Shown: positions 12,198 to 36,841 of the stretch, in pieces | How positions within the stretch are numbered: the first letter of the stretch is position 1 | Layout: each line of letters starts with the position of its first letter | Assembly: GCA_051294905.1 (NCBI GenBank) | Contig: CM119373.1 | Coordinates: 1,552,001 to 1,616,000 of the forward strand | Origin: Botryllus schlosseri | Lineage: Eukaryota | DNA: 64,000 nucleotides | Direction: 5' to 3' | Program-made: the position numbers and the translations under genes | Notes under the pieces: generated by a model | The model's input: only the letters and a program-made list of their open reading frames with translations | Told to the model about the DNA's origin: nothing | Databases searched by the model: none

Positions 12198-12835
12198 CAG
12201 TATAGCACCCTTCATATACGGGTGTGAATATACACCCATAGCGCACGGATCCTGAACCGATCTCAGAATTATACCGCGGCATAAATTGAGTACAAAATTT
12301 CAAAGCGAATTATACATGCACGAAGGAACGTATAAAGGTACGCACATGCACGCCTGTAGGCCCGTAAGATTTTTGACCGCAATATAATTCCGAGTCAAGT
12401 TTTGTTTTCGTGTACCAGCCATTTCTGCCCTTTTGGTGTGAATAAACACTCTTTTCTAATGAAATATTCAGTTTAGGCACAGAACGCTTAGTATATCATG
12501 CCTGATAAAGGTCAGTGTCTACTCTACCAATTGTAAAGCAAAAGGTATCAAGGGTCATTGCATTTATTGATTCGATATACGTGTAATTGTGATTCAACGA
12601 ACCTGACTAAAATACGAGGTCACTGCAAAGTGGTAGATTGTCGCTTAATTACGCATGACTCGATCGTTGTTATCATTGAAACCTTCTCTCTTTTACGATA
12701 AATCGGTGTTTGTCCGAATAGTAACGACCGTAAGAGCATTCCAGGACTATTACTCGTGACGTTTTTCATTTCATCAGCGCTCTCCACAAATTACTCAATA
12801 ATATGGGATTCGATAATTATTTACTTATGCGTGTG

Positions 12836-14717: not shown

Positions 14718-15288
14718 CTTATGCGTGTGAGAGTGAAGTGTAGAGCTGTTTAGCACGTGAACGTGAGCAGAAGTTTCATATCCGGTATTTTCGAATGGGC
14801 AACACACCGTTTTCACGAATCTCAACGAACCCCCAAAATCATTGTAAATTCATACATGGCGTACTCGCCAATGCTTGCCTTACGCTCACTACAGGCAGAC
14901 AATCGTTTAAAGTTATTCTTAATATAAATAAGCCGCAGCATATAATTAAATACTTGCAGATCGTTCCACATAAATCCATCGACATAATTCAGCTGCATGA
15001 AGTCTATCTGCACGCAGTGTATCTAACCAATCGCTTCCACAATAGCATATCTTATATTGATGTTAATGTAAACTTCAAGTCAAGAGTATGGATGTTCAAA
15101 CCTGAATTTATCAGCTATAAATTTATAAATCCGAAAATATATAAAGCAGAACTTTATTGATGGAATGAACACTAGCAATTTTGATATCTGAAATCGGTTC
15201 ATCTAACAAACTTTTTGCTCGAATTCATAATCATACGTCGAGAATCAACATCAGTGACTGTTCAGTGTTCAGTGTCTCGTAATGGGAG

Positions 15289-15803
15289 TAGGGCTGGGCA
15301 AAATCGAGTACCTGAGTGATTCGATTCTGAATCACGTATTATGCTTCGAGTCGAGTCGAGTATTCGAGTATCACATATTATGACGTCATAACAGAATGTA
15401 ATATGTCAAAGTTCAAATATGTACCTATTATGCCACAGCAAAGAATATAATGCATGTTATCCATCACATTAAAGATGCTTTGATATTTTTTCGACCATAC
15501 CGATTTCATTGCACTTCGTGACAAGGTTATGGGATGATTATGACTTCGAAAATGTGTTATTTCACGTAAGCTTTGTAGCTTTGTACTATGTTTCGTATGC
15601 TTCAATGCAGCCAATTAGTGTTTTAAGCCTTCCACGTTGGAAACTAGCATCGAAACTATAATTGTCGTTGATAAATTAACTTTCAGTAGCGAGGAGCTTG
15701 TAATTTCAGTACTCGAAAATATCGTATTTTACTACTCGACTCGAATCATTAAAATTAATACTCGATTCAGATTCGAGTACTCGAATCATTGTGCCCAGCC
15801 CTA
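15289..15803. mobile_element. hAT MITE, copy X only
   Basis: TIR TAGGGCTGGGCA, 8-bp TSD AATGGGAG (15281-15288, 15804-15811), TCGAGT subterminal repeats, and an empty site at 30094-30101. Confidence 0.95.
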
Positions 15804-15992
15804 AATGGGAGTGCAATTCTTCAACAAATATCAAAAACCATAACGTATTCTTTATGGCAGTCTAGACATAGAAATAGCCTATATAAATAGATTGATGTGG
15901 AAATTATGCAATTCATTTGATATGTCAAAACAATAATCCAACGTGTCGAGCGATACTGATATCTTGATATCTAATATAATGAAAATCTAAAC

Positions 15993-17118
15993 CAGTGGTT
16001 CTTAACCTTTTCCTCTTCAGCGCCCCCTTTCAAAAGTTGCCTGAGTCTGACGCCCCCCTATTTTAAGGACTGTAGTAAAAACCAATGGGTAAGTGGTCGA
16101 AGTCCGCTTTTGGGTTTGGGCTTCACTATTAGACCACTCGACTAACGGTATAATATTTTATGCCGTTTTCGGGATCAAATCCAGGTTGTTATAACAACCA
16201 TCGGGTAAGGACTACGGGCTCATAGCATTCGGTTCGAGATCTATGGACACATCTCGAATTCTCCTCAAATTCCCCTCCTGCGATTGGCAATACGGTGAAG
16301 AAAATTATATTGCTGGTTTTGTTTTATTGCTTTGTGTGACCAATTAATCAACTGAGACTGTGGTAGAGATTTGCTCACAATAAATTTAGTGCTGCTCTTA
16401 GATTTAACATAAATGCGGGTAACAACACTCAGCAATATCATCCTTTGTTACACGATGAAGAAATATTCTGACGATTTATTTTGTAGCTCTCAAATACAAG
16501 TACATTTAGTTACTCGTTTTGGCTAAAAAGCTTCAAAACACCTTAAGTGTACAAAGGCCATCACTCTCAAAAGCTGTAAAGTAGCCTACAATGCCATTAC
16601 GATTTCGGCACGCAGTGCGCTTCAGGATACAATACCTAGTTCAAACTATTTGAGGAAGACAACTAGAGCTATCAGTATAAGTATCAGTTTATTAATATTT
16701 TTATCATTTCAAAACACCACAAAACTGTGATACAGTGAAAGGATAGGAAGGTGTCAAAACTACTTGGGAGTGTTATAACGGGGAATTAACAATCCAAAAG
16801 TACGCCAAATTCATTTTACATGACTTGAAATAAACCACTGCATTCATGGAAGCATGGGTCGGTGGATATTTCGCGATGAGCGCAACGAAAAACGTTGTGA
16901 TTTGACAGATTTTGTCGAATGTTAGTTTGCAATGCGAAGTCAGGAATAATCATATGTCCTTACTACACCATCTGCTGCGATATCATTTTCTTCAGCCCCC
17001 CCCCCCCCCAACCGTCGCCAGAGCCCAATGCCCCCTATGTCGTCCCCTGAGCGCTTCCGCCCCGTCAAAATCCAAGTCGCACCCTGGGAGGCGCTGGAGA
17101 CAAGGTTAAAAACCACTG
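15993..17118. mobile_element. Non-autonomous hAT element (5' part shared with copy Y from 30283)
   Basis: Termini CAGTGGTTCTTAACC / GGTTAAAAACCACTG and a degenerate TSD (ATCTAAAC / ATATAAAT). It is absent from the homologous position in copy Z (~41230). Confidence 0.8.
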
Positions 17119-17164
17119 ATATAAATCATCACGAACTATATTGGTAAAATTACGTCTCTTCCAG

Positions 17165-17212
17165 CTTCATAATCTGCTCATCTTCGACAGTACAATGCTC
17201 CCAGACGCATAG
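17165..17212 (+). pseudogene. Broken B-type LRR exon in copy X
   Basis: Acceptor TCTCTTCCAG is followed by LHNLLIFDSTMLPDA*, against LQKLTIFDSTMPPDAY in exon 41276. There is an in-frame TAG and similarity is lost afterwards. Confidence 0.75.
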
Positions 17213-20200
17213 AAGAGTAGCGTACGGCCAGTGTTGCTGAATACAAATTCTGTAGGAGGAATTGGGTTCTGAGCTGTCGTAAGAAGTCGTCAGAAACAAC
17301 ATATACAAATGCGCGTGGTTGTGTTCGTGTAGTTTTTGCGCTATCACGAAGCAACTAACGATCCAGATTAAACGTTTAAATTCTAACCTTATCCAAGTCT
17401 CTATCATGGTCTCATGCTCAATCTTCTGGAATGATAGATACTTTTGTACTCAGCGCTTCTTTGGAAATTGTATCAATCATCACACCCATCTCTAATCTGA
17501 ACATATAAAGTGTCATCACCATGTTTTCATCTGCTATCACACTAATCGAATTTTTGAATTGTTCTTATGCTCTAATTTTAATTCTAATCTAATTCTAAAA
17601 TGTTTCTATGCTTCAATTTTAATTCCAATCTAATTTACGAATTGTTCTTATGCTCTAATTCTAATCTAATTTATTGTTTTCCTGAAAATGCCTATTTGAC
17701 CGCGGCATGTTGCAGCGAGTCCCTCTCGCACAGGGATATCCAGAGGCAAGCCTCTATCGCATCACTTACACCGTAAAGAATTAGTAGTTGTTGTGCGACG
17801 AATAATAGCCATACTGGCATATTAGCTTGTATGTTTGTTTTCTGGAACAATTGTGACGCATATCGCCGAATCATGTTATTTGTGCCATGATAATGAATGT
17901 TGCAATGTTCATTGATCTTTGCCTTTGGAACTCTTTTTGGACTACTTCCAGTCACGTATCCATTCATCATCTATATCTATCTCGTTTGCATACGACCACT
18001 TCAGTGTCTTTTGCTGACGATTTTCGAAGCTCGAGTTCAATTATTTAAACTGGGCTTTTCGTACGGCACTGCATACGCAGTGATCAGCTACTAACGATTC
18101 GATATTAGGGCTATCCAGACATGTTGCTAGGTGAAAGACTATCTCATCCTAAATATTGGCTTTGGGGACGCCCTATAGCCCTAGTTTTCCAAGCGTCTCG
18201 GTGTCGAGTGCACTGTACGTCATGGCAATATGCCTATTCATGCCAGCTGACTCTCCATCGATGGAATACTGTTGCCGTCGTTGAAGCTATTTCTGCTATA
18301 GCGAGGAATAGTGTTGTTGCGGACAGACGAATAGGTTTATTTAAAACAACAACAATAATAATTTGAAACTGAAATCAATTTACGCATTTCAAAATGCTTT
18401 ATTCGCGTTCTTCCAAATTCACAGATCAGATCGATGGTCGCAAGATACGACCTCGCGGGCCGCCTGTTGATGACCCCTAGTATAGTGCAAAACGAGCAAA
18501 GCTTGATATACAGACGTTAACCAATCTCTTGGTTATGAGACTTCACTGTGATTGGATATGAACTGAAATTTTTGCTGCATTTATCATTCAGAATTTCATT
18601 CAATTTCAAAGTTTTTCCGATTTCAGTAGCCAAATTCTGATGCTAATTATTATCTAATTTTGAAAAACCTGTGATGGTCTGATTATAATTCTATTCTAAT
18701 TTGGAAAAAAGACGTGTAGCTTTATTTCTAATTCTAATCTAATTTAGAAAAAATTGTACAGCTCTAATTATAATTCTAATATAATTAGGAAAAGCTTAGA
18801 AATTCTAAATTGTCCAAGTCTGCCACGTAAATGGTGTCTCATAAAAGCATGAGTGGGCCGTGAAGCAGGTCAGCAGCTACGGAATTTAAATGAAGCACAT
18901 TGGCCTGATGTAAATGTCCATAGTAGTCGACAAACCCCATGAATACCTCAAATGAAACAAACAAACGATTAAAAAGAGAGCATAGAAATACGCCAACTTA
19001 TATCGTCGTTAGTGCCACTGAGTTAGCGCTCCATAACTTTACTCAACAGGTAAATCATCGCGATTTTGCCAATTCCATTATTCGCAAATAAATTCGTTGC
19101 TAGAATATAAACCCAATGATCCGTGATATGATTTAATGTACTATTATGTATATATAATTGATAATAAAGTATTCAAGTGAAAATACGGACATGTGGCAAA
19201 ATTTTGAAACGAGTTGACAGATGGTCAGGCCCGTGAGAGATTTGAAGATTTTAATCCCACCCGAGTAGCCATTTGAGTTTGACAACCGTGCTCTAAGCTT
19301 AATTGCAATGACGAGATAGCATAATGGTATGATCCACGGCTGCAACACCAATTGGTTGCGGGTTCGAGTCTGACCGAGGTCGCCTCCAGAATTCCCAGCC
19401 AAGTGTTAGAGGTTTATATAGGGCTAGGCTCCTCTTCATTCACCTGATCGGCGCTAGCGATTTCTTAAAAAAGCCTAGAAGTGGATTTTGCTATGAGTGC
19501 TCTCAATATTGCAGGCCCTGAGTATTTTTCTGCACAGCGATCAATGTATATTTTAAAAATTAGATGCCTCGTGGCTTTGCATTCAGGACAGTTTGTTTTA
19601 CATGCAATCGAAATTTAAATCATTGGTAAACCAGAGTATATATTGCATGACATTAGGAGCCGGTGATTATGTCTATTACAACATTTGATATTCTCTATAG
19701 TAGCTGAGTGACGTAAAGACCGAGTGTCTCATTTCGATTTCCTAAAAGTGTTTATGAATACTGGCTGGGCACCGTTTAAACCCCAATACTGTCGTTATCG
19801 CGCTATAACTAGTAGATTAGTAATCATAAAAACTACATTAAGGTATGCTTTAAAGCTGCCAAACACAGTACACCTGCCGTCTCGGTGGATTCAATCGGAC
19901 GGATTTACATGCCAATATCCTAATGGCGACAAATTTTTGAAAGAGGCAGAGATTGCTCTCATTCCAGTCAACAGAATTCTACGTTGAAATAGGCCCCATA
20001 CATTTGTTACTCAGAAGACCGAGTTTCCAAATAATGTCAGGAAACTAGCTCATAGGTAATTTTACAAATTTCTATTGTGTTTGAGTGTATTCGATCAAAT
20101 GAAATCTAGAACATTCTAATCGACTCGAGGATCAATTCTCGATTCGGAATCGTATCATTCGAGCCCTCGATGTTGCCAAGCCACAATTGCAATATTAATT

Positions 20201-20301
20201 TGCTTGAAATGATGGCGAAGCCATCGTAGCATAGTAATGTGATACTAATAGTCTTTTACAGTTTACTGACAGAAAATTCGATTTCATTTTCGAAGCCTAG
20301 T

Positions 20302-20558
20302 TTGTTTGTTTGTTTTATTACATTATTGGCGCTTATCGCACATATGGTTATTTGCGCCCAGCACATGAATTGCATTAACACAATGTCTTTGCGGTCTTGC
20401 TTTATCTTTCTGGTCATTGGCTGCCATCTTTCCAGAGTTCGGCTCTCTCTTCTTCTGGGCTTTTCAAGGCGCTGTATATACAGCGAGATCGGCGATGAGG
20501 AGCCCAGATAAACCTCCGACACATAGAAACATGGCAGAGCCGTGACTCGAACCACCAA
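20302..20558 (-). mobile_element. 5'-truncated tRNA-derived SINE, copy Y only
   Basis: B-box-like GGTTCGAGTC at the minus-strand 5' end, AATAAAA(CAAA)n tail, flanking repeat CCTAGT (20296-20301, 20559-20564). It is absent at ~32580 in copy Z. Confidence 0.8.
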
Positions 20559-20598
20559 CCTAGTAAAAGTAATGTTATACGATATTTTATCATTCTAG

Positions 20599-20766
20599 TT
20601 GCAAAATCTCAGTATCATCGACAAATCAATGAATGAAGATGGATATGAAATGCTCGTTCACATTCTGAAGCTGTCAGATTGCAAGGAATTGATGCTCCAA
20701 GATTGTTGTCTCACCAAGACTAAGTTGCAAGGAGTATTGAACGGATGTCGGGATCAAAATATCCAG
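20599..20766 (+). CDS. LRR (NLR-like) gene, A-type exon, copy Y (168 nt, phase 0/0)
   Basis: Acceptor TTTTATCATTCTAG and donor CAG|GTGCGT. The open frame LQNLSIIDKSMNEDGYEMLVHILKLSDCKELMLQDCCLTKTKLQGVLNGCRDQNIQ gives two ~28-aa ribonuclease-inhibitor-type LRRs. Confidence 0.8.
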
Positions 20767-21283
20767 GTGCGTCATCATGAATAATCCGCAATATCCAAGA
20801 AGACATGTCCCCAACGATTCGAAATTTTTCGTCATCCTACTTCGCCTCAAAAACCATGCAGCATAAAATCGTTCACCGTTTATTCTGGCGTTTACCAATA
20901 CTCGTCGGAGGTAATTCGATTACCGCAGGCGTTTAGTCTTTTGCAACACAGAGAACCTTGTATATTTTTAAAATTGCTAACGTCGTGACAGCGTAGATAT
21001 TAACAATATAGGAATATTCATGACAGAAATCTAGCCGACGAGGCCGAAAGAGTGATAAAAATCGTTTTAGTGTTTGATGATGTTGTTCCATGCACCTGTT
21101 GTCATGGCTTGGAATTTGGGAATTCTAGAAAATTTGTTGCTGATGGAAATGCGGAAAATAATTTGCAGCTTTGGTAAGGCTCCCTGATCTGCTCTACTGG
21201 TGAATGGCTGAGAAAGGATTCATGCTTGATATGAATATGTGAAACTATTAACATCAATGACGAAAGTCATTAGTGAATCTGAA

Positions 21284-21457
21284 CAACTTCTTGGAGGTAC
21301 AGAACTTCAATATACAATTGATTAGTATATTCATATTGAAATGAACCCGAATATATTCGGCTGATACTCGTCAGGGGTAATCGTCAGAAACTAGTAGAGA
21401 ATACAAAAGAACAGCGTATATCATCAATCATAACACAAAATATGACGTCACCAGCAG
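21284..21457 (-). mobile_element. Solo Penelope-like pseudo-LTR (family 1), copy Y
   Basis: Homologous to 43825-43990 and flanked by CATT(A/G)GTGAATCTGAA (21268-21283, 21458-21473). It contains a mutated hammerhead at 21345-21388. Confidence 0.85.
21345..21388 (-). ncRNA. Hammerhead ribozyme, mutated (GAAA to GAAT), likely inactive
   Basis: The minus strand reads TCTGACG-ATT-ACCC-CTGACGA-G-TATCAGC-C-GAAT-ATAT-TC-GGGT. Confidence 0.75.
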
Positions 21458-24400
21458 CATTGGTGAATCTGAAATTTTTCGCAATTCGCGCGATATTGCC
21501 CGTTCCCATAACGTGACCACTCGTGATTTCGGTGCGTGTAGTAAGCGGATATGAAATATTAGATAAGTCCAGAGCTCAGCGGAAATGGACATAGATCTCT
21601 TAACATCAGTAGTTGGCGTCCAGCTAGTTCATCGCGACTAAGCCCTGGAATGCTGCCGTAGGCTATGATTCATCGAAATGCGGCCGTGAATAGTAAAAAG
21701 GTTGGCGACCCCTTGTTTACACCTTGGAAATGAATTCCAGCTAAGCTTTTCATTTAAGAGAGCTCGTTTGTCATGCACTTGAAATTCAAATCATTTAAAC
21801 TATTTTTTTATAATGGTGTCGAATCATATACAATCTGCCAGCGACTTCAATACTAGTTGACAATATGTAACAGTATTTTAATAATCTGTAATATGTATTG
21901 TGCTGCATCCGGAATATTTCGCGATCGGTATTTTTCGTTACATGTCGCTATATCTCCAATCGCAAAACCATGTATTCCATGGAGCCCATTGTAAAATGAC
22001 AACATGTAACAAAGTTTCTGTAAGCACTGCGGCGGGCGGTCATATTGTCAATATATATTATAGGATAATACCTCATGGTATAAATCTTATAGCCGGCTGA
22101 GTGAAGAAAATCGATTTAGTGTTTGATGCTTGACTCATATTTACTCGGGATCCAATTTCCTAGTTTTTGATCACCCCGCGGGCCACAGCGTCAATCTGGG
22201 TATTTAATGTATGTTTAAGTATGTCGTATTTGACGAGGTGAAATTGTCCGATTGAAGGTTAACCGAAATAGCTGACTGAGATTCCGCAAATATCGTGACA
22301 TTGTGATTTACAATTTTTTTAGCAATTTATGCGTGGCACGAATAAAAACCACATTTATAAATATTTTACTAGAACTGTCATTGTACATGGCAGGGAGTAC
22401 GCAACATTTGTCAAAATTATGAGAAATAGGCACCATAGTCGAATCCAGATTTTGGGTGTCATATTAATCAGTATAGTCTATTGATTGCGTCATTGCCCAA
22501 GTCAAAATAAAACAGCGTTGGATTTAAATTCACTGGTGGTACAGCGGTGGAGCGTAGCACTACAGTATTCACCATCTTAAATCAGCGATAAAGGTATGGA
22601 TAAAGGGATCAAAGATGCAACTGACCACACATTAAGGGGGCAACATAATGCTCAATCTTGTTATAACAACTTGCGTCGATAGCGAAATACCATGTCACGA
22701 GCTTATCATCTATTACTACCCCCTTGGACACGCGAATAATAATTTTCGCGTCTGTGGTTATAACCATGTCACGACGTTCCGAGTTACTCGGAGTCAACTC
22801 GAGTCATTTTCATCTTGTCAACTAGTCATTCCGAGTAATTCTGCGAAAGGTCGCCTCAAACTCAAAGTCACAATTTCCAGTCTCGAATCATATAAGGTTC
22901 ATGTTTTATCATCAAGATTAGGCTATTCCATGTGATAGCAGATCTTCCATCGCGTGGTAGCGTTTGAAAGTGATGCCATATACGAAGTTTGATCAGTAGT
23001 TTTATGTTTTTGGGCAAATTTAAAGTGAATGATAACTTTTCAAATCAGACAAAAAGAAATGTTGCACTTAACTGCTGCCAAGTATAGCCTAATTGGATAT
23101 CCAAAATTTTGACGTGGCCAAGCAAAATGTCCTCGTCGGCCGCGTGTTTGCGACCCAGGCTTAGAGCTTGCGGATTACTATTATCAAAACCATGCTGGTG
23201 TAAATAGAGAAAAGAATTTCCAGCTTTGGCATGAGGTTACTGGTCTATTGCGAATTAATCACAGAATATGAGGCAATACACAATTTACGATTTTAGACCG
23301 AAAAGTGAGCATTTCTCCCCAGACAGGTCTGTTCTGTAAGGTTGCTGTAAAATGGAAATTATGACGGATGGAGCTATGTCCAACAATAGTAGAGAAAGCT
23401 AGCGTACATGAAGTGTGACATAATGCTCATTCTTCACGCGGAATGCGGTCACTAAATGTCGCTAAAAAGTAGCTACAAATAACGACATGTCAATGCGCGT
23501 GTGAGTTCGCGTGTTTTGTGCTATCAAGAAACATCATGTCGATCCCCCCCAAAAAATCCTAAATCGAACCTAACCTAACCCAAGCCAAACTAATCTCTAC
23601 GCTAATATACTTTCATCAATTCTGACCTTCAATAATATTCACGACACATCGCACCGTAAATATTTTTACGATTACGTTCCGCAAAGAAAGATAACACTGG
23701 TCAACAAAATGAAGAAAAAAATGACAGAACATCTAGGAGGTGTTTCTGGGATTTTCAAGGTTGCCGATTACGAATATCACATCACATTTGTTTTTCCAGA
23801 TTGCCTCTAAAAAATAACATGTTTGTACCCCTAAAAAAGCTTCAAATCATTGTATTTACCCTTGAATATTTCACTTGGTAGGAAATAAATCTTTTTTTAC
23901 TTTTATGCTGAGCATAAATTTATAATGGACTAGGACACTCATGTCGTTATCAGTTATTCCATCAATATTAACATGACCTGATGCGAGAACTTCGTTAAAA
24001 AACAGTTTGTCAAGCCAAAAAATTGTTCTTTTGCTCGATGGTAATATATTTTATCTTGTAACCATCGGTCACTCTGCCAAGATGAAAGAGGTATATTAAG
24101 CTATCAAATTTGTCCCTGGAAAGCTTACCTTGGATATTCATATGCTTCTCATCTCTTTTCACTTTTAAATGAATAATTTTCCATGAAGCCAAAAAAGTGA
24201 GTATATCAAGTATCAATATCAAGCGAGAAGCTCAACTCTGGAATCTTTGATGGATCTCAGATTAGAATACGGGCCAAGGATGACAATTTAATATTAAGAA
24301 AGGTGCTCCTTGCATGGAATACCTTCCAGGATGTAGCATATAAAACATTTTGGACGATCACAAAGCACCCAACTACAAACAGTTGGTTCGAGAATTGGTA

Positions 24401-25249
24401 TCTGCATATGGAAACCTTGGACCAAACATGAACATTAAATTTCACTTCCTGTTCAGTCATCTTGATATATTCTTTGTTAATATTGTTGATTAGATCAGTG
24501 GTTCTCAACCAACGGTCCGCGGACCGGTGCCGATCCGCAACGACATTACTGCCGGTCCGCCAAGTATATTACAATGTTATTCCTTAATTTCAAGATGCAA
24601 TGTTGAAGGCTACAAGTACAGAACAGATACGAGCTGACTCATAGCTAAGGAGCGCAGTTTGCGCGATCGTTCGTTTTCGATTCATTCATTTTGAGCAGGA
24701 CCGTAACTGGGGCACTCCAAACCTCTCAATTGGAATGGGGCCGCGCTTGAAAACGGCCCACAATTATTTTGCAGATGAACATCAATCATAGCGTGTTTTT
24801 TTTTCAACATTTTCCAATTTCTTCGCGCGATTTAGTGTCACTGAACGTCTTGCTAGTTAGGTGCCCTTCTCCGAGAATTACGCATGATTTAAAGCAGGGC
24901 GAGCAACTTCTCCAGTCGGAGGGGCGGATGCAGGAGAATTAAGTACTTGGCGGGCCGGATAGCTGAATCGATACATTATTCGCCCATTTATCCACATATA
25001 CAAAAACTGAATCGCAAATCATGAATGTATTGTAACGAAAACAATGTCATTTCAAAGCCATTTCTAGGCGATAATGACAAAGACAATGTGGATGTGAGAA
25101 CACCATTGCCATACAGGCGCCGCACTTTCAACTTCTCTCTCATCAATCAACACATGGTGCAATCCTTAATGAAGACTTCAAGGCGTTCGATAAGCCCGGT
25201 ACCCCAAATTTACCAAGATATCAATTCATTAAGGTCGAGCACATCGTAA

Positions 25250-25472
25250 ATGCCGATAATGCAAGTCTTCCCGCTTCTACGAACTTACGCGTAAGCTCCA
25301 CTCTCGCACGCATTCTCGGCAATGTCCATTCTCAGTAATGGTTTTCTCGATATTGGTATAGACTGAGCCTCCGTGGCCCTAGTCTGCCGAGTTATTTGCG
25401 TGTGTGCGCAGCGTGCGAGAATGGAGCTTACGTGTAAGTTAGTAGAAGCGAGAAGATATGCATTATCGGCCT
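25250..25472. mobile_element. Small foldback MITE, Harbinger/Tourist-like (interrupted by a hAT in copy X, ~9490-10643)
   Basis: Imperfect inverted arms of ~60 bp (GCCGATAATGCA...CTCGCACGC / GCGTGCGAG...TGCATTATCGGC) flanked by TAA/TTA. Confidence 0.65.
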
Positions 25473-26350
25473 TTACGGTTTTATATCAGTACCAAGAAAA
25501 CTATTACCGAGAATGGACAATGACAAGATTCTAACTTACTGAGAAGGCGTTGTTGAGAAATTTGTATCTGAGAATCGACACCGAATGTGGCAAAGCCGTC
25601 ATGCACAATTGCACATGCACACGACCTGTATATATGCATAACATGCCTGCATTGCATACATTGCATTCTCGGCGGTGTCCATTCTCGGTAATAGCTTTTT
25701 CGGTAATAGTTTTTCGGTCTTGACCGGACACCGGCCGGCGGGCCACATTATCAACCAAGACGGGAATCTGTCCGCGAGCCGGATACGGAACGCGGGCTGT
25801 ATGTTACCCGCCCATGATTTATAGAAATAGGCATTTCGGCGTCAGCCATTACCACGCCACGACGTACCAACACATAATAAAGGCTGGGCTGACATGGGAC
25901 TCCGAAAGATGTGCCAAAAATTCGGCAGCGTAAAATCCGATTAAGTCATGAATGATGGAATATTTTCGCTATTGGCGCGATTAAGCTACATAAACTCTCT
26001 GCTTACACCGAGTAGAATGAATGTGCTCACAAGTGCAGGTGAAAACATCCACCCAAATGTGGGGTCTGGGGGCGAAGCCTCCGGAAGTTTGGCTTGTCGC
26101 CCACTGGATTCCAAGTCCAATGTTTTTGGAGGTGGGCTGACGTAGTGCTTTTTCGGTCGGATTTGCGCATCGCCGGTATAGCTGCTGTAGGATGCTTTCT
26201 TGCGGTACGCATTGTATTCGTAGTTGGCAGAGTAGCCTGCGTCTGGTGGCAGTGGGCAATGAGCAAGGTAGCACGACAATGTGGCTGTAACGCTTCTTCT
26301 CTCGATATTGTCAAAGAGAAGAATATTATTCGAGTTGGCGTGATCGGTTC

Positions 26351-27723
26351 CAGTGGTTTCCAACGTGGGCGATATCGCCCCCTAGTGGGCGATTTTGAGA
26401 AACAAGAGGGATAAAATACGAAAGGAGAGACTGGGGGGCAAAAATGTTAGAACGTCAAGTGAGATATATTTAATTACCGCGGCCAAAATTTGCACGTAAA
26501 GAGGACTTATTCTGCATATGACGCGAAAAAAGCTCCACTTAACGGAACGTAGACGCGGAAACCGGTTTTCCGAGCACCTAGTCGGAAAAATGACCCTTTG
26601 TTTTAGTCAGTTTCCATCAGTGATCAGAGTTAGGTGAATAAAGGTAGGGGAGATGTGGTACCGATGGATCACTGGGACCGAAAATACTTAGAAAATTCTC
26701 TATGATAATTCCATGATTACACTCTGTGAACTTGTCTACAATAGCATGCTGGCAAAATCTTTCCTCACATACAAAAAAATTCGACGTGTGCGAGCTATGG
26801 GGTCTCTCACAGATGTTTTTTGTTTTGGGGGGTGTAAAGTAAATTTAGATCGACACATACATTTTTCTTTGTAACCTTCAACACGAACAAACAAGCAATC
26901 AATTTTATTGTGAAGTGTAGGGCTTGTATCAGGCTGTATATTGGCACCTATTATTTTTTTCAGTACTTTCCTTGAGATGAATTTTTTTCGATTCATGTAT
27001 AAACTTCGTAGGATGGGGACCGATGATACAATAGCCAAATCGAGCAAAATAATCAAGCATACTAATCATGAAACAAATGAAACATGCCTACGTACAGAAG
27101 ATATTTATGTAATAATTGCATATGATGTTTTGTCGCTATAACGAGGTATTTGGAAGTCACACAGTCGATTTTCGGGCAATATGTATGTACCCTAAAATTC
27201 ATAGGTCCGAGCCTAAATCGAAACGTGATTTTATGACAACATTTGAGTTAATATTTATTCTATGTGTTGACGGTTGCGATCAAACATTCTTCTTTGGCTT
27301 TCTGTAGCTTAGATTATAATACTGAGCAAGAAAAGTTGTCACATCTGAGTTTTTTAGGAAATGTGTGTCATAGGTCCCCGGGTCGTGTGCCATTGGACCC
27401 ACCCGGTGGGGACCGATGACACGTTCGAGCAACGAATTTTGAACGTCCATAAATATTTTTTGAAAAGACGGATATTCATGTGTATGTGCGCGATAGGTAG
27501 AGCTTGTATCGAAGTGCTGCGCCAGCAAAAGATCTGCCGTTTTCGGCTGAACATTTTGAGGTCAGCGATCATTTTCCAATTTTTGATCCATCGGTACCAC
27601 ATCTCCCCTACATAAACTTCGTAATTATATGCCCTCTTATTCGGATCCGTAAATTGTGAAGGGCGAAAATTAGTATCGAACTTGATAAGAGGGAGATGAG
27701 TCGAAAAAGTTTGGGAACCACTG
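26351..27723. mobile_element. hAT-like MITE nested in 24496-28029 (copy X counterpart ~11517-11925)
   Basis: Termini CAGTGGTTTCCAA / TTGGGAACCACTG, with no matching TSD. Confidence 0.7.
26647..27608. mobile_element. TA-flanked MITE (Tc1/mariner-pogo-like), copy Y only
   Basis: Perfect 25-bp TIR GGGGAGATGTGGTACCGATGGATCA, TA on both sides, and an empty TA site at 11811-11812. Confidence 0.93.
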
Positions 27724-30700
27724 AGTTAAACCCACGGCCTTCGGCGCGTAAGACTGTTAACGAATCTTGGCGGTAGCACGTTTATCTGGACAATGCAATT
27801 TTACTAGGACTTAGCAGACTCACTACCATAATATCACATGGATGCCGTCAGGAAGATAATTAATTACGATCAAATCCCTCTAAATGTCACTCTCTAACAC
27901 CATATAACTGCAAACAACGGTTGCATAATTTACATTTCGGGTTTATTTCAATTTTTAAAGTTCACCGGTCCGCCAGACATTTTTTGAAATTTTACCGGTC
28001 CGCAAGGTGAAAAACGTTGAGAACCACTGGATTAGATGGAATAGAAAGGGGAAAGGTTCCAGCAATATGTTACAACAACATTAGAAGGAAATCAGTGCAG
28101 ATGCGACGGGCATATTATGGCAGGCTGCTGCTGGAACCTTTCGAAAAGCTGCACTAAATTGCTTACAACCGAAAATAGTGCAAGAACCAATTTTGATTTA
28201 AGACAGGTTATTAATATTATATTACAACTGATTATTTTGAATTTAAAATAGGTGGTTGGCATGAAACTGATACAACTAATGCAACAAAATTTGAGTATTC
28301 AGATAACTACCTATATATATGATTAGAGTTTATTTTTTGTAGGCTACATGATATCCGTAAAGTCTCCAATTATGATAAATCAACTACCCCGAAATATAAT
28401 TCCGTTGCTGTATTTTAATTTAAAACAGTCTTCAGCGTATCAAAATAACAAGTAAATTGAATTTATAAACTTTATATTGCGACCGAGCCGACTTTTTATC
28501 CCGCCCACACAGCGAAATTATGAGATTTTATTCCAAATAGCCCCATGGGTCGTCTCCATAAATAGGGGTCATTTGAAAAAACCAAGGTCATATTCGGAAT
28601 CAGTGCCCTTCAGAAACCTCAACACCACTTTTACTTTGTCTGCCTAAAAGTATGCGTTGACCAGTGTAATCAAGCCATCCCGATATTTGATAAAGCAGAT
28701 GAATAATATCTAATCCCAATCCTAAACGAACTTGTTTTATGATAACGCATTATTAGATACATTGTACATTACTAACTCACACAGATATATGGAACATTCG
28801 GATGATAGCTGGTAAACTTCCGCGCGCACGTAAAGGCCACACTAATAGCGCAAAGAGTGTGTATTCCTACCAGTATAGCACCCTTCATGTACGGGTGTGA
28901 ATATAAACCCATCGCGCACGGATCCTGAACCGATCTCAGAATGATACCGCGGCATAAATTGATTACACAATTTCAAAGCGAATTATACATGCACGAGGAA
29001 CGTAGAAAGGTATGCACATACACGCCTGTAGGCCGTAAGATTTTTGACCGCGATATAATCCCGAGTCAAGTTTTGTTTTCGTGTACCACCCATTTCTGCT
29101 CTTTTGGTGTGAATAAACTCGCTTTTCTAATAAAATATTCAGTTTAGGCACAGAACGCTTAGTACATCATGCCTGATAAATGTCAGTGTCTACTCTACCA
29201 ATTGTAAAGCAAAAGGTATCAAAGGCCATTGCATTTATTGATTCGATATACGTGTCATTCCATTGTGATTCAACGAACCTGACTAAAATACGAGGTCACT
29301 GCAAAGTGGTCGATTGTCGCTTAATTACGCAAAACTCGTTGTTATCATTAAAACTTTCTCTCTTTGACGATAAATCGGTGTTTGTCCGAATAGTAACGAC
29401 CGTAAGAGCATTCCAGGACTATTACTCGTGACGTTTTTCATTTCATCATCGCTCTCCACAAATTACTCAATAATATGGGATTCAATAATTATTTACTTAT
29501 GCGTGTGAGAGTGAAGTGTAGAGCTGTTTAGCACTATATCAAAATATATTTCACGTGAGCAGAAAATTCATATCCGGTATTTTTGAATGGGCAACACACC
29601 GTTTACACGAATCTCAACGAACCACCAAAATCATTGTAAATTCATACATGGCGTACTCGCCAATGCTTGCCTTACGCTCACTACAGGCAGACAATCGTTT
29701 AAAGTTATTCCTAATATAAATAAGCCACAGCATAGAATTAAATACTTGCAGATCGGAATATTATACTATATTGTTCCACATAAATCCATCGACAATAATT
29801 CAGTTGTATGAATTCTATCCGCGCGCAGTGTATCTAACCAGTCGCTTCCACAATAGCATATCTGAAATTGATGTTTATGTAAACTTCAAGTCAAGAGTAT
29901 GGATGTGCAAAACTGAATTTATCAGCTATGAATTTATAAATCCGAAAATATATAAAGCAGAACTTTATTGATTGAATGAACACTAGCAATTTTGATATCT
30001 GAAATCGGTTCATCGAACAAACTTTTTACTCGAATTCACAATCATACGTCGAGAATCTACATCAGTGACTGTTCAGTGTTCAGTGTCTCGTATAATGGGA
30101 GTGCAATTCTTCAACAAATATCAAAAACCATAACGTATTCTTTATGGCAGTCTAGTCATAGAAATAGCCTATATAAATAGATTGATGTAGAAATTATACA
30201 ATTCATTTGATATGTCAAAACAATAATCCACCGTGTCGAGCGATACTGACATCTTGATATCTAATATAATGAAAATCCAAACCAGTGGTTTTTAACCTTT
30301 TCTTCTTCAGCGCCCCCTTTCAAAAGTTGCCTGAGTCTTGCGCCCCCCTATTTTAAGGAATGTAGTAAAAACCAATGGGTAAGTGGTCGAAGTCCGCTTT
30401 TGGGTTTGGACTTCACTATTAGACCACTCGACTAATTAACGGTATAATTTTTTATGCTGTTTTTGGAATCCAATCCAGGTTGTTATAACAACCATCGGGT
30501 AAGGACTACGGGCCAATAGCATTTGGTTCGAGATCGATGGACACATCTCGAATTCTCCTCTGCGATTAGCAATACGGTGAAGAAAATTATATTGCTGGAT
30601 TTGTTTTATTGCTTTGTGGGACCATTTAATCAACTCAGACTGTGGTAGAGATTTGCTCACAATAAATTTAGTGCTGCTCTCAGATTCAACATGAATGCGG

Positions 30701-30966
30701 GTAACAACACTCAGCAATATCATCCTTCTCAATTTCATTCGATTTCCAAGTTTTTCCGAATTCAGTAGCCAAATTCTAATTGTAAGTATAATCTAATTTG
30801 GAAATAACTGTGTTAATCTAATTCTAATTGTAATCTAATTTGAAAAAATTCTATAGCTCTAATTATAATTATAATCTAATTCGGAAATGCTAAAAACTTT
30901 CTAGTTGTCCTAGTCTGCCGCGTTAGTGGCGTCTTATAAAAGCCTATAAGTGGACCGTGCTGCAGG

Positions 30967-31146
30967 TATTGTTTGTTTGTTTTGGGGTATTCATGGTGTT
31001 TGTCGACTACGAGGGTCATTTACACCAGGCCGACATTCTTTTTATTTTCCGTAACTGCCGACTTATAGCACGGCCCACCTCTAGACTTTTGTAAGACACC
31101 GCTGACGCGGATGAGGTAATCCTCCAACACTTGGGTATCGAAATTC
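30967..31146 (-). mobile_element. Short retroposon inserted antisense into a copy of its own family, copy Y only
   Basis: 12-bp TSD CCGTGCTGCAGG (30955-30966, 31147-31158) and a (CAAA)n tail on minus. Its reverse complement resembles the host repeat, which is uninterrupted at ~18823-18965. Confidence 0.8.
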
Positions 31147-32615
31147 CCGTGCTGCAGGACAGCAGCTACGAAATTTAAATGAAGCACATTGGCCTGGTGT
31201 AAATGACCATAGTAGTCGACAAACCCCACGAATACCTCAAATCAAACAAACAAGCGACTAAAAAGGGAGCATAGAAATACACGAACTTATATCGTCGTTA
31301 GTGCCACTGATTTAGGGCTCCATAACTGTACTCAACAATCAAATCATCACAATTTTGCCAATTCCATTGTTGGAGAATAAATTCGTTGCTAGAATATAAA
31401 CCCTATGATCCGTGATATGATTTAATGCACTATTATGTATATATGATTGATAATAAAGTATTCAAGTGAAAATACGGACATGTGGCAAAATTTTGAAACG
31501 AGTTGACTGATGGTCAGGCCCGTGAGAGATTTGAAGATTTCAATCCTACCCGAGTAGCCATTTGAGTTTGACAACCGTGCTCTAAGCTTAATTGCAATGA
31601 CGAGATAGCATAATGGTATGATCCACGGCTGCAACACCAATTGGTTGCGGGTTCGAGTCTGACCGAGGTCGCCTCCAGAAATTCCAGCCAAGTGTTAGAG
31701 GTTTATATAGGGCTAGGCCCCTCTTCATTCACCTGATCGGCGCTAGCGATTTCTTAAAAAAGCCTAGAAGTGGATTTTGCTCTCAATATTGCAGGCCCAG
31801 AGTATTTTTCTGCACAGCGATCAATGTATATTTTTAAAGTTAGATGCCTCGTGGCTTTGCATTCAGAACAGTTCGTTTTACATGCAATCGAAATTTAAAT
31901 CATTGGTAAAACAGAGTATAAATTACACGACATTAAAAACTGTTGATTTTGTCTATTATGACATTTGAGATTCTATATAGTTGCTGAGTGACGTAAAGAC
32001 CGAGTGTCTCATTTCGACTTCCCAAAAGTGTTTATGAATACTGGCTGGGCACCGTTTAAACCCTAATACTGTCGTTATCGAGTGATCACTAGTAGATTAG
32101 TAATCATAAAAACTACATTAAGGTATGCTTTAAAGCTGCCAAACACAGTGGACCTGCCGTCTCGGTGGATTCAATCGGACGGATTTGCATGCCAATATCC
32201 TAATGGCGACAACTTTTTGAAAGAGGCAGAGATTGCTATCATTCCAGTGAACAGAATTCTACGTTGAAATCGGCCCCATATATTTGTTACTGAGAAGACC
32301 GAGTTTCCAAATAATGTCAGGAAACTAGCTCATAGGTGATTTTACAAATTTCTATTGTGTTTGAGTGTATTCGATCAAATGCAATCTAGAACATTCTAAT
32401 CGACTCGAGGATCAATTCTCGATTCGGAATCGTATCATTCGAGCCCTCGATGTTGCCCAGCCACAATTGCAATATTATTTTACTTGAAATGATGGCGAAG
32501 CAATCGTAGCATAGTAATGTGATACTAATAGTCTTTTACAGTTTACTGACAGAAAATTCGATTTCATTTTCGAAGTCTAATAAAAGTAATGTTTTACGAT
32601 ATTTTATCATTTTAG

Positions 32616-32783
32616 TTGAAAGAGCTCAGTATCATCGACAATTCAATGAATGAAGATGGATATGAAATACTCGTTCACATTCTGAAGCTGTTAGATTGCA
32701 AGAAATTGGTGCTCCAATATTGTTGTCTCACCAAGACTAAGTTGCAAGGAGTATTGAACGGATGTCGGGATCAAAATATCCAG
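32616..32783 (+). CDS. LRR (NLR-like) gene, A-type exon, copy Z (168 nt, phase 0/0)
   Basis: Acceptor TTTTATCATTTTAG and donor CAG|GTGCGT. Translates LKELSIIDNSMNEDGYEILVHILKLLDCKKLVLQYCCLTKTKLQGVLNGCRDQNIQ. Confidence 0.8.
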
Positions 32784-33541
32784 GTGCGTCATCATGAACA
32801 ATCCGTAATATCCAAGAAGACATGTCCCCAACGATTCGAAATTGTTCGTCATCCTGCTTCGTCTCAAAAACCATGCAGCATAAAATCGTTCACCGTTTGT
32901 TCTGGCGTTTACCAATACTCGTCGGAGGTAATTCGAATACCGAAGGCGTTTCGTATTTTGCAGCACAGAGAACCTTCTACATTTTAAAAATTGTTAACGA
33001 AGCGATAGAGTAGATATGATCAATATAGGAATATTCATGACATAAATCTAACTGGTGAGGCCGTTTTAGTGTTAGACGATGCGGTTCCATACACCTGTTG
33101 TCGTGGCATGGAATTTGGGAATTCTAGATAAACTGTTGCTGTTTCAAACGCGGAAAATAATTTGCAGCTCTGGTATGGCGTCCCTGATCTATAGCGAGGT
33201 AATTGGCTGAAAAGAGCCAATGTTAAATTTAGGATTTTAGGCCGAAAATTGGACACAATTTCATACTTTTAAGTTGTTTATCAATTTGGGTGGAGAGAGC
33301 TATGTCAATCACTGATTGTCCAATTGGGAGGTCAAGAATTAACAGCATGCAATAAAGTGACTAATAACAATTGGCTCACAGCATGATGCATCATTGTATA
33401 TAACTTGCCCTCAGTTTTCGAAGATACCCCTTGATCAACTCTACTAGTGAATGGGATCACATGGGCTGAGAAAGGATTCATTCTTGATAGGAATATGTGA
33501 AACTATTACCATTAAAGACGAAATTCATTAGTGAATCTGAA

Positions 33542-33715
33542 CAGCTTCTTGGAGGTACATAACTTCAATATACAATTGAATAGTATATTTATATTGCAAT
33601 GAACCCGAATATTTTCGGCTGACACTCGTCAGGGGTAATCGTCAGCAACTAGTAGAGAATTCAAAATAACATCTTATATCAACAATCGTAACACAAAATA
33701 TGACGTCACCAGCAG
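33542..33715 (-). mobile_element. Solo Penelope-like pseudo-LTR (family 1), copy Z
   Basis: Paralog of 21284-21457 at the same position, with the hammerhead intact. Confidence 0.85.
33603..33646 (-). ncRNA. Minimal type I hammerhead ribozyme, intact core
   Basis: The minus strand reads GCTGACG-ATT-ACCC-CTGACGA-G-TGTCAGC-C-GAAA-ATAT-TC-GGGT. Confidence 0.85.
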
Positions 33716-33760
33716 CATTACTGAATCGCACTTCGCTCGATCTTAACCGTTCCCATAACG

Positions 33761-34213
33761 TAGGCTTACCATATTTTGGAAATCAAAAAAGAGGACACTT
33801 TTTCAGAAATATCCAACTTGCAAAACCGGCGTCAAATTTTCAAAATTGGGCTAATTATTCCCACTTTGTGATCGGTTGACTAAAAAAAAAAAAAAAAGGT
33901 CATCTGTTCCGCTCAGATCTCAAAATAACGTTTTGTACTCCACTTCGCCAGGTGGATGACTAAAAAAAAAAAAAAAAAAAAAAAAGGTCTTCTTTTCGCT
34001 CAGAGCTAAAATTACCGTTTTTCACCCGTCGGAGCTTCACTTCTGGGCTAAAATGTGCCATGTCACTAGCAATTTGCTCTAAATCTGCTCTAAATCCTAA
34101 GAAAAGAGGACAAAATCTCAAAAAAGAGGACAAAAGGGCGTCCTCCGAGGACACTTTCAAAAAAGTCAAAAAAGAGGACAAATCCTCTTAAAAGAGGACG
34201 TATGGTAAGCCTA
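33761..34213. mobile_element. hAT MITE, copy Z only
   Basis: 13-bp TIR TAGGCTTACCATA, 8-bp TSD CCATAACG (33753-33760, 34214-34221), AAAGAGGACA subterminal repeats, and an empty site at 21506-21513. Confidence 0.95.
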
Positions 34214-34785
34214 CCATAACGTGACCACTCGCGATTTCGCTGCGTGTAGTAAGCGGATATGAAATAATAGATAAGTCCGGAGCTCACCGGAAATGGACAT
34301 GGATCTCTTAATATCAGTATTTGGCGTCCAGCTAGCTCATCGCCACTAAGCCCTTGAATGCTGCCGTAGGCTACATGATTAATCGAAATGCGGCCGTGAA
34401 TAGTAAAAAGGCTGGCGACCCCTTGTTTACACCTTGGAGATGAATTCCAGCTAAGCCTTTCATTTAAGAGAGCTCGTTTGCACTTGAAATTCAAATCATT
34501 CAAACTTTTTTTTTAAAATGGGGTCGAAGCATACACAATCTGCCAGCGACTTCAATACTAGTTGACAATATGTAACAGTATTTTAATAATCTGTAATATG
34601 TATTGTGCTGCATCCGGAATATTTCGCGATTGGTATTTTTCGTTACATGTCGCTATATCTCCAATCGCAATACCATGTATTCCATGGAGCCCACTGTAAA
34701 ATGACAACATGTAACAAAGTTTCTGTAAGCACTGCGGCGGGCGGTCATATTGTCAAGGATAATACCTCATGGTATAAATCTTATA

Positions 34786-35044
34786 ACCGCTCATGGAGCG
34801 TATTGCTCGCCAGACCCGAGTTAGTTTGGCGTTGCTGTCACAAGAAGTACAGAAATCTTGCCAATGAGATTTTTTAGCTTGCAGCACAACCTTTCTTGCT
34901 TCTGCCCGACGTCGCTTGAACGCGATAACATCTTCTGTGCGGAAGCTGCGTTTCATTTTGCAATACGCGGCTCGTTTCAGTCTGACTGCCTTCGAGCATT
35001 CCTTGGTCCACCATGGTATGCTCTGTTTCGCTACTGGTCTGGTT
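34786..35044 (-). mobile_element. Internal fragment of the I-group LINE, without TSD or tail
   Basis: Matches 13846-14104 at roughly 85-90% by eye (peptide MKRSFRTEDVIAFKRRRAEARKVVLQAKKSHWQDFCTSCDSN is shared). It replaces the sequence found at ~22092-22517 in copy Y. Confidence 0.9.
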
Positions 35045-36028
35045 CTGGATCTAACTTCACTGGGGTTACAGCGGTGGAGCGTAGCACTACAGTATTCACC
35101 ATCTTAAATCGGCGATAAAGATATGGATAAAGGGATCAAAGATGCAACTGACTACACATTAAGGGGGCAACATATTGCTCAATCTTGTTATAACAACTTG
35201 CGTCGATAGCGAAATACCATGTCACGAGCTTATCATCTATTACTACCCCCTTGGACACGCGAATAATAATTTTCGCGTCCATGGTTATAACCATGTCACG
35301 ACGTTCCGTGTTACTCGGAGTCAACTCGAGTCATTTTCATCTTGTCACCTAGTCATTCCGAGTAATTCTGCGAAAGGCCGCCTCAAACTTAAAGTCATAA
35401 TTTTCAGTCTCGAATCATATAAGGTTCATGTTTTATCATCAAGATTAGGCTATTCCATGTTATAGCAGATCTTCCACCGCGTGGTAGCGTTTGAAAGTGA
35501 TGCCATATACGAAGTTTGATCAGTAGTTTTATGTTTTTGGGCAAATTTAAAATGAATGATAACTTTTCAAATCAGACAAAAAGAAATGTTGCACTTAACT
35601 GCTGCCAAGTATAGCCTAATTGGATATCCAAAATTTTGACGTGGCCAAGCAAAATGTCCTCGTCGGCCGCGTGTTTGCGACCCAGGCTTAGAGCTTGCGG
35701 ATTACTATTATCAAAACCATGCTGGTGTAAATAGAGAAAAGAATTTCCAGCTTTGGCATGACGTTACTGGTCTATTGCGAATTAATCACAGAATATGAGG
35801 CAATACAAAATTTACGATTTTAGACCGAAAAGTGAGCATTTCCCCCCATACAGGTCTGTTCTGTAAGGTTGCTGTAAAATGGAAATGATGACGGATGGAG
35901 CTATGTCGAACAATAGTAGAGAAATCTAGCGTACACGAAGTGTGACATAATGCTCATTCTTCACGCGGAATGCGGTCACTAAATGTCGCTAAAAAGTCGC
36001 TACAAATAACGACATGTCAATGCGCGTG

Positions 36029-36077
36029 TGTCGATGTCGATGTCGATGTCGATGTCGATGTCGATGTCGATGTCGAT
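36029..36077. repeat. (TGTCGA)8 microsatellite
   Basis: Eight perfect hexamers; copies X (~7772) and Y (~23537) have a single unit. Confidence 0.95.
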
Positions 36078-36227
36078 CCCCAAAAAGAATCCTAAATCGA
36101 ACCTAACCTAACCCAAGCCAAACTTATCTCTACGTTAATATACTATTATCATTTCTGACCTTCAATAATATTCACGACACATCGCACCCTAAATATTTTG
36201 ACGATTACGTTCCGCAAAGAAAGATAA

Positions 36228-36640
36228 CACTGGTCAACAAAATGAAGAAAAAATGACAGAACATCTAGGAGGTGTTTCTGAAATTTTCAAGGTTGCCGAT
36301 TACGAATATCACATTTGTTTTTCCAGATTGCCTCTAAAAAAGAACATGTTCGTACACATAAAAAAGCTTCAAATCACTGTATTTACCCTTGAATATTTCA
36401 CTTGGTAGGAAATAAATCTTGGATTTTTTTTACTTTTATGCTGAGCATAAATTTATAATGGACTAGAACATTCATGTCGTTATCAGTTATTCCATCAATA
36501 TTAACATGACCTGATGCGAGAACTTCGTTAAAAACAGTTTGTCAAGCCAAGAATATGTTCTTTTGCTCGATGGTAATATATTTTATCCTGTAACCATCGT
36601 TCATTCTGCCAAGATGAAAGAGGTATATTAAGCTATCAAT
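36228..36640 (+). mobile_element. Chapaev3-type element 5' part, copy Z (truncated)
   Basis: TAA|CACTGGTCAAC start; similarity to 23695-24110 ends abruptly at ~36640. Confidence 0.85.
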
Positions 36641-36841
36641 TTCATGGGTGAACAGAAAATTTTGAATTTTTTTTACTAATTTTTAAAAAATAAATAAAAA
36701 AATTTCTTCTCTTGTAGTAATGCGGCTACTGGTTGGAATTGAACCAAATTTGGTGTGTTGGCTTCAATTCGGAAATCTAACAATTTTATCAAGTAGCAAC
36801 TAGAATTTGAAAGAAAAAGTCATTTTTGAACACCCCTACTG
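36641..36841. mobile_element. Probable single end of a Tc1/mariner-type element at the copy Z breakpoint
   Basis: Ends ...TTTTTGAACACCCCTACTG|TA (reverse complement CAGTAGGGGTGTTCAAAA). No partner end was found. Confidence 0.5.

Follow-up and report, generated by a model that had tools for sequence, protein, structure and literature searches.

Adjacent duplicated leucine-rich repeat exons of a probable giant NLR gene in Botryllus schlosseri differ mainly at predicted strand-surface residues

Whether the leucine-rich repeat (LRR) domain of animal NACHT-LRR receptors (NLRs) is a diversified recognition surface is debated. A 64,000-nt stretch of the Botryllus schlosseri genome (assembly GCA_051294905.1, contig CM119373.1, here called C3), spanning C3:1,552,001-1,616,000 and referred to below as the window, raises this question on a small scale, as it holds two nearly identical LRR exons that differ by non-synonymous changes alone. 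Were these differences selected for, did they arise by chance, or were they carried in from other copies? The two exons, twin 1 (20599-20766, + strand) and twin 2 (32616-32783, + strand), were compared with each other and with their relatives in the 495-Mb assembly; positions are those of the window unless preceded by C3. We consider it likely that the twins are neighboring LRR exons of a single, very large NLR gene, that they arose by a recent duplication and that they are diversifying at the strand surface.

Each twin is a 168-nt, phase-0 exon that encodes two ribonuclease inhibitor (RI)-type LRRs of 27+29 residues. Frame 0 is the only open frame in both, and both are flanked by AG/GT: the acceptor reads ttctag/TTG in twin 1 and ttttag/TTG in twin 2, and the donor reads CAG/gtgcgt in each. 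Twin 1 is the best match of the exon family. An earlier note, made from the letters of this DNA alone, had reported nine nucleotide differences with no synonymous change among them, eight altered residues, mostly in the two strand motifs, and an identical 3' end, and these counts turned out to be exact. The differences are at nt 4, 7, 9, 27, 54, 77, 88, 94 and 103 of the exon. From twin 1 to twin 2 the residue changes are Q2K, N3E, K9N, M18I, S26L, E30K, M32V and D35Y, with N3E caused by two nucleotide changes, so nine changes alter eight residues. All nine are non-synonymous, and the last 21 codons (36-56) are the same in both twins. The note's estimate of roughly 7-8% for the neutral chance of zero synonymous changes was also about right, with P=0.075 at a kappa of 1.8, compared to 0.11 at kappa 1 and 0.053 at kappa 3; counting sites by the Nei-Gojobori method (S=32.7, N=135.3) gives 0.14.

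The clustering of the changes within the exon exceeds chance. Six of the eight changed residues fall within residues 1-9 and 28-36, which account for 18 of the 56 (hypergeometric P=0.010). RI-type LRRs are defined by the motif LxxLxLxx(N/C)xL every 27-29 residues, and the solvent-facing x codons of both LxxLxLxx(N/C) motifs (2, 3, 5, 7, 8, 29, 30, 32, 34 and 35; 30 nt in all) were fixed before the family was inspected. These a-priori codons contain six of the nine nucleotide changes (clustering P=0.0017). The twins therefore differ by 20% (6/30) at the x codons, as against 5.45% (220/4036 aligned bases) in the non-coding DNA of the two units that carry them (P=0.005). The remaining 138 nt of the exon have three changes (P=0.054 for so few at the intron rate), and the final 65 nt have none (P=0.026). 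Five of the nine differences are singletons among the 22 unique exons and look like new mutations; twin 1 has four of them, at K9, M18, M32 and the third position of N3, and twin 2 has one, L26. K2/E3 of twin 2 is common to the paralogous copy L021, and its Y35 is common to copies L016-18.

The wider family shows diversifying selection at these x positions. The sample comprised 24 full-length paralogous exons from one chromosome arm, with 22 unique sequences; the likelihood tests left out the duplicates L013 and L018 and a copy with a deletion, L025. Likelihoods were computed with a purpose-written codon program (GY94, F3x4) in which branch lengths were free only in their common scale factor; it reproduces the IQ-TREE M0 likelihood (-854.765 vs -854.764). 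Models with a class of positively selected codons fitted better in each comparison of the 22 unique exons, with twice the log-likelihood difference (2dlnL) being 39.2 for M1a vs M2a (p 3e-9), 43.0 for M7 vs M8 (p 4.5e-10) and 39.1 for M8a vs M8 (p 4e-10). The ratio of non-synonymous to synonymous divergence (omega, dN/dS) was ~5.9 on ~12% of codons. Sites with a posterior above 0.5 were codons 3, 5, 7 (0.74), 30, 32 and 34, and all six belong to the 10 of 56 a-priori x codons. With a tree derived from the introns, 2dlnL was 76.7 and the selected sites were identical. When each half of the exon was given its own tree, 2dlnL was 15.3 and 18.0 (p 5e-4 and 1.2e-4), and site 35 was added.

Counting methods agree with the models. 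Over 276 pairs, the Nei-Gojobori dN/dS was 0.70 for the whole exon; the a-priori codons on their own gave 1.71, and the remaining codons 0.30. Pairwise dN reached 0.315 in the a-priori set, where dS was 0.185; exon-wide, dS was 0.107. Nucleotide diversity among the 24 copies was 0.134 in 659 well-aligned intron columns, which served as the reference, 0.242 over the 30 nt that make up the a-priori set (P 3e-4 by intron-column resampling) and 0.041 in the rest of the exon, or framework (P<1e-5 by the same resampling). Variation is concentrated at codons 3, 5, 7, 12, 25, 30, 32, 34 and 35, and many other codons are invariant, third positions included. The earlier note had named a dN/dS at or below 1 without enrichment at the motif positions as the outcome that would speak against selection; with the paralogous exons gathered and site models run, the opposite was found, as omega is above 1 and the selected sites are all on motif x positions. 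The diversifying-selection interpretation is thus supported at the level of the family, with moderate support when the twins are taken by themselves.

Where do the selected residues lie on the protein? An AlphaFold2 model of the exon (32-row alignment; predicted local distance difference test score 83) has strands at residues 3-7 and 30-34 and helices at 13-25 and 40-47. The earlier note had placed the changes of the twins on a predicted concave beta-strand, and the model bears this out in part: N3E, E30K and M32V are inside the strands, and the other five changes are outside, with Q2K and D35Y flanking the strands, K9N at a conserved Asn, M18I in a helix and S26L in a loop. Across the family, the selected residues interleave with the conserved L4, I6, L31 and L33 in the modelled strands, and this alternation suggests that they point away from the core. 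By analogy with known LRR structures, the selected face would be the concave, ligand-binding face. It may bind a ligand derived from pathogens or from non-self.

The LRR character of the exons is most evident in their translations, which read L1-x-x-L4-x-I6-x-x-N9-x-M11 and C28-x-x-L31-x-L33-x-x-C36-x-L38; the motif, with its 27+29-residue period, is seen across all 24 full-length copies. No LRR match was returned by Pfam for single exons at E<=10, as the exon is too short, and among 134 open reading frames (ORFs) of the window Pfam found retrotransposon domains and no LRR. A profile built from the exons matched 53 proteins in a library of 1.84 billion, among them NACHT proteins in which the unit recurs 32, 22 and 11 times in tandem, one of which also has Death domains. 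Another match, P0013, an NLR of the fish type, carries FISNA, NACHT and LRR_6 (E 6e-111) and was reached by the profile at E 6.5e-14 in 18 stretches. The relatives in the library are distant, with 32-36% identity at the NACHT exon. A homologue search for longer proteins, with LRR exon and NACHT exon queries, gave nothing, which is weak evidence. The LRR reading of the earlier note is nonetheless supported by an upstream NACHT exon, a downstream cap exon, the beta-alpha-beta-alpha model and the FISNA-NACHT-LRR_6 profile match.

The twins lie in a ~12-kb tandem segmental duplication detected by self-BLAST. The unit with twin 1 (18858-24110, +) matches the unit with twin 2 (31147-36642, +) in blocks of 84.6-94.4% identity, and the two units are sisters in an intron-based tree with 94% ultrafast bootstrap. 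The exon is gone from an older, third copy at 6914-16445 (+): 6914-7422 matches 19626-20130 and 7424-9603 matches 23178-25363, so that the junction at 7422/7424 corresponds to 20130 -> 23178 of the twin 1 unit. Between this copy and twin 1 lies a truncated pseudo-exon of a second type, B (17163-17211, +; profile match 17120-17209, independent E-value (i-E) 0.098; confirmed by reading the sequence), which has an acceptor, 16 codons and an in-frame TAG, after which homology is lost. This remnant indicates that exons of the array do die, unlike the 25 intact copies of the twins' own type, A. The twin 1 unit alone contains a 260-bp insertion (20300-20559, strand not assigned), seen as a break in the self-alignment at 20299/20560, which ends 39 nt before the twin 1 acceptor. 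Its last 60 nt (20501-20560) have ~117x bulk RNA read depth, and the reads on them run on into unrelated sequence (loose ends 20554-20560), suggesting that they belong to a repeat or small RNA of high abundance. Scans for tRNAs and with Rfam had no match at 20501-20560 and none in the rest of the window.

Beyond the window, 25 close A-type copies were found at C3:1.53-2.15 Mb with 75-88% protein identity, and more diverged families elsewhere. All 25 are on the + strand with frame 0 open and AG/GT kept, one of them with a 6-nt in-frame deletion. This copy, L025 (C3:1,782,796), has lost two codons of the second helix (CCLTKLQG vs CCLTKTKLQG), with frame and splice sites kept. Given ~119 substitutions on the exon tree, the neutral chance of no stop codon is ~0.0015.

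The nearest NACHT exon (L031:4156-5367, 404 aa open) lies ~150 kb upstream of the twins on the same strand. It has a PF05729 match at C3:1422381-1422896 (57.3 bits, above cut-off), and its Protein Atlas neighbours are all NACHT/NOD2-WH clusters. The subfamily has three NACHT exons on C3 (+), at 1,422,156, 1,696,722 and 1,929,385. Three cap exons, at C3 positions 1,600,611, 1,838,859 and 2,166,510, follow them one by one (36/36 candidates scored). The order of NACHT and cap exons points to three tandem giant genes of ~179, 142 and 237 kb, with 3, 7 and 15 A copies, respectively. That a NACHT exon and the LRR exons after it form one gene is suggested by this genome order, with one NACHT and one cap exon per array, and all of the exons may be spliced into one mRNA. 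A transposon-dispersed exon was considered and rejected, as all copies are on one strand and between one NACHT and one cap exon per array. Three A copies, L016, L017 and L018 (C3:2,056,789; 1,812,555; 2,033,583), are identical or have three differences over the exon and ~650 nt of intron. They span genes 2 and 3 and, within gene 3, lie 23 kb apart, and may represent very recent large duplications or assembly redundancy.

Gene 1, to which the twins would belong, extends ~179 kb from the NACHT exon at C3:1,422,156 to the cap exon at 48611-48805. Its 3' end consists of the dead B exon at 17163-17211, twin 1, twin 2, a B-type exon at 41276-41443 and the cap exon, so the twins are its last two A-type exons. 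The B-type exon (+; 168 nt, phase 0, AG/GT) was found by tblastn and by profile (i-E 9e-26) and is 29% identical to twin 1. The cap exon (+; 64 codons plus TAA, phase 0 acceptor) was found by tblastn with the C-termini of distant relatives, P0009 (E 5e-6) and P0001 (E 0.003). More 168-nt exons, of the A' and B types, are present at loci upstream. The introns between the exons found range from ~1 to ~43 kb; the parts of gene 1 at 1,428-1,469, 1,474-1,485, 1,490-1,528.6 and 1,531.8-1,542 kb were not read, and B-type exons there would be missed. Exons for an effector domain and a helical domain were not located in gene 1, where mapping of P0001 and P0003 matched the NACHT exon alone (32-36% identity). 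In diverged paralogs at C3:6-7.2 Mb, the matching parts lie within 20-39 kb and the 168-nt exons are 450-600 nt apart. The compactness of these paralogs suggests that the giant size of the three genes is due to intron expansion and duplication.

Exon variants also move from copy to copy. The twins form a pair in the tree of introns but not in that of exons, and different genes can hold the same exon or nearly the same one (L012/L013; L016/L017/L018). In the pair L008-L020, the introns differ at 10/659 positions and the exons at 15/168 (P 6e-8), and L006-L020, L009-L020 and L022-L023 show a similar mismatch. L020 (C3:2,042,801) is 1.5-2.1% apart from L006, L008 and L009 in the introns and 9-10% apart in the exon, framework positions included. 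Of all the copies, L020 is therefore the one in which gene conversion has most clearly, if still putatively, replaced an exon tract. This disagreement between exon and intron histories indicates that short-tract exchange of exon variants acts beside point mutation.

Several results weigh against the reading of the twins as functional, selected LRR exons of one gene. An exon profile searched against the PDB reaches ribonuclease inhibitor at an E-value of 3.9 only, a single exon being too short, and Foldseek against the PDB gave no match at E<=0.001, the 56-residue unit being too small to be diagnostic; its list contains NLRP1-LRR (TMq 0.68) and RI (0.62) among many Rossmann-like beta-alpha-beta matches. 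The NACHT search scored 103 of 201 candidates, so an extra diverged NACHT exon inside the array is possible. The RNA examined, consisting of ~6% of the bulk RNA-seq run X23 and three sets of contigs presumed to be RNA, contained no transcript that ties either twin exon to the gene. X23 depth was 0-0.06 over 32507-33173, with essentially no reads on either exon, and the depth in the first bin near twin 1 stems from the repeat at 20501-20560 and not from the exon. One contig on 20644-20766 ends exactly at the 3' boundary of the exon, but it has V32/E34 and so derives from a paralogous exon. Another (32754-32865) crosses the exon-intron border without being spliced. In favor of the reading, a third (depth 2.65) has the 3' end of an A exon joined head to tail to the 5' start of an A exon (32787 -> 32623), which is the product that splicing of successive A exons would give.

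Neutral drift is one alternative: the copies would be redundant or decaying and out of use, with the nine differences non-synonymous by chance. The near lack of RNA reads on the twins fits this explanation, as does the whole-exon divergence of 9/168 (5.4%), which equals the non-coding 5.45% (P=0.57). There is thus no overall acceleration, and for the pair alone drift could account for the differences; likewise, the 9:0 ratio of the pair is weak evidence and only suggestive (P 0.05-0.14). Twin 1 also shows possible signs of decay. Its codon 9 (20623-20625) is Lys, where 22/24 copies have the conserved Asn and one has Ser, and K9 may weaken the first repeat or mark relaxed constraint; the insertion 39 nt 5' of its acceptor and the dead B exon upstream point in the same direction, and so does the third copy of the unit, which has no exon. 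Drift does not predict, however, that the changes cluster in codons chosen a priori, that the other 138 nt stay below the intron rate and the last 65 nt identical, or that 25/25 copies keep frame and splice sites despite an intron diversity of ~13%. The framework diversity of the family, far under the intron value, also disagrees with it, and we regard drift as unlikely. Another possible explanation is a gene-conversion mosaic without positive selection, in which the genealogy of the exons is older than that of the introns, the x positions are unconstrained and omega is ~1. The conflict between exon and intron trees supports it, with some pairs at 1.5-2% intron divergence and 9-10% exon divergence. 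Furthermore, 178/406 pairs of informative sites are incompatible, and in our own test of the pairwise homoplasy index (PHI) type 0/5000 permutations were as low, although some of this conflict could come from hypervariable sites that mutated more than once. A three-base difference at codon 32 (GTG/CAA) is common to copies scattered on the intron tree, and K2/E3 and Y35 of twin 2 are present in other copies. Recombination among copies weakens tree-based tests and can inflate them, and this is the main caveat of our analysis. The singleton differences of the twins, however, five of the nine, were not copied from any sampled paralog. A mosaic with omega of ~1 is also at odds with a dN at the a-priori codons above dS, both exon-wide and in those codons, and with the M8a vs M8 test and the half-exon tests on their own trees, all of which are significant. 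Conversion without selection is therefore very unlikely in our judgement, but exchange and selection are not exclusive, and we think that both act.

The preferred reading of the twins as successive exons of one protein has a further rival in splicing. The A-type exons could be alternative cassettes, mutually exclusive or combinatorial, with the twins as two choices for one position in the protein. With a uniform length of 168 nt and phase 0, any subset of the exons keeps the frame, and introns of ~1 to ~43 kb separate the exons found; for human NLRP3, Hoss et al. (PMC6642158) document skipping of a modular LRR exon. None of the RNA examined supports the cassette reading, and the single exon-exon joint seen is head to tail from A to A, which favors tandem inclusion and also argues against exclusivity of the Dscam type. 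As many as 32 units follow one another in relatives from other species, and the exons of the compact paralogs are ~0.5 kb apart, like constitutive exons. We find such cassettes highly improbable. A broader version, in which the 25 A exons, each distinct mainly at residues predicted to face a ligand, form a cassette library whose subsets are spliced or somatically exchanged by cell or by individual, is a highly speculative idea that we hardly expect to hold. If it were true, only three NACHT genes would provide a combinatorial repertoire of intracellular receptors.

The window contains other elements around and beyond these exons. Two 452-nt direct repeats (38044-38495 and 40746-41197), 99.3% identical and 2.7 kb apart, resemble the long terminal repeats of a recent insertion, and the second ends 79 nt 5' of the B-type exon; Pfam matched none of the ORFs that they enclose. 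ORFs of the long interspersed nuclear element (LINE) type, with endonuclease, reverse transcriptase and RNase H/zf-RVT domains, are at 12935-14718 (-) and 55719-58543 (-). The latter is in a GC-rich island (0.555), and its 818-aa ORF (56090-58543) runs without interruption from one stop codon to the next. A 297-aa open frame at 59962-60852 (+), 3' of the last exon of the NLR gene, has no Pfam match.

How might such an array arise under the reading that we favor? Unequal recombination between ~12-kb units would add or remove exons and leave the frame intact, and short-tract exchange would carry exon variants from copy to copy. Selection would keep the frame open, preserve the splice sites and hold the structural framework constant, and would favor residue change at the outward-facing strand codons 3, 5, 7, 30, 32, 34 and 35. 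The introns of gene 1 are filled with transposon-rich duplicated DNA, and the twins would be the youngest visible step of this process of duplication and diversification. As a defined pair, they make the earliest changes after a duplication legible, and the 25 copies, each with an adjoining intron as a yardstick, offer a clean natural series on the diversification of an LRR surface.

A limited search of the literature found no paper on this locus or on LRR diversification in ascidian NLRs. Vertebrate NLRs, as represented by NLRP3, resemble the array in having fixed-length exons of two repeats each, the same border point in the beta-strand, frame symmetry that lets exons be skipped or duplicated, and NACHT upstream (Hoss et al. 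2019, PMC6642158). The modular LRR exons of NLRP3 are 171 bp (28+29 residues), in contrast to 168 nt (27+29) here. The Botryllus genes also differ in their duplicated introns, of up to ~43 kb between the exons found, in having up to 15 near-identical copies per gene and in a strong site-specific omega>1 among the repeats; alternative splicing is a feature of NLRP3. In zebrafish, the NLR-B30.2 genes are likewise a large tandem chordate NLR family shaped by duplication and by gene conversion limited to domains, but selection in that family was placed on B30.2 and not on the LRRs (Howe et al. 2016, PMC4852459). Here no B30.2 was seen, and it is the LRR strands that carry the signal.

Parallels for the mode of evolution are also found outside the animals. 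The ROCO genes of Ectocarpus have LRR exons of equal length and phase 0, intact and dead copies in introns, shuffling that blurs paralogy, and sites selected under M2/M8-type models on solvent-exposed LRR residues (Zambounis et al. 2012, PMC3341825). Those genes encode ROCO GTPases of a brown alga with one 24-residue LRR per 72-nt exon, whereas the present ones are animal NACHT NLRs with two RI-type repeats per exon and all copies on the coding strand. The NWD/HET NLRs of Podospora share repeats that are ~85-95% identical and exchange within and between paralogs, with a few hypervariable positions on the interaction surface under positive selection (Dyrka et al. 2014, PMC4986451). They differ in that their WD, ANK or TPR repeats lie inside single exons, and repeat-number polymorphism between individuals is shown for the fungal genes. 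In the animal NLR family at this locus, the LRR exons would thus follow the pattern of the receptor repeats of plants, algae and fungi. The regime that it shares with them is a near-identical framework, hypervariable strand residues (omega ~6), gain and loss of exons by duplication of exon plus intron, and exchange of variants. The pattern is known from other immune receptors, and the array is neither a new mechanism nor a new kind of system but a well-controlled example of it.

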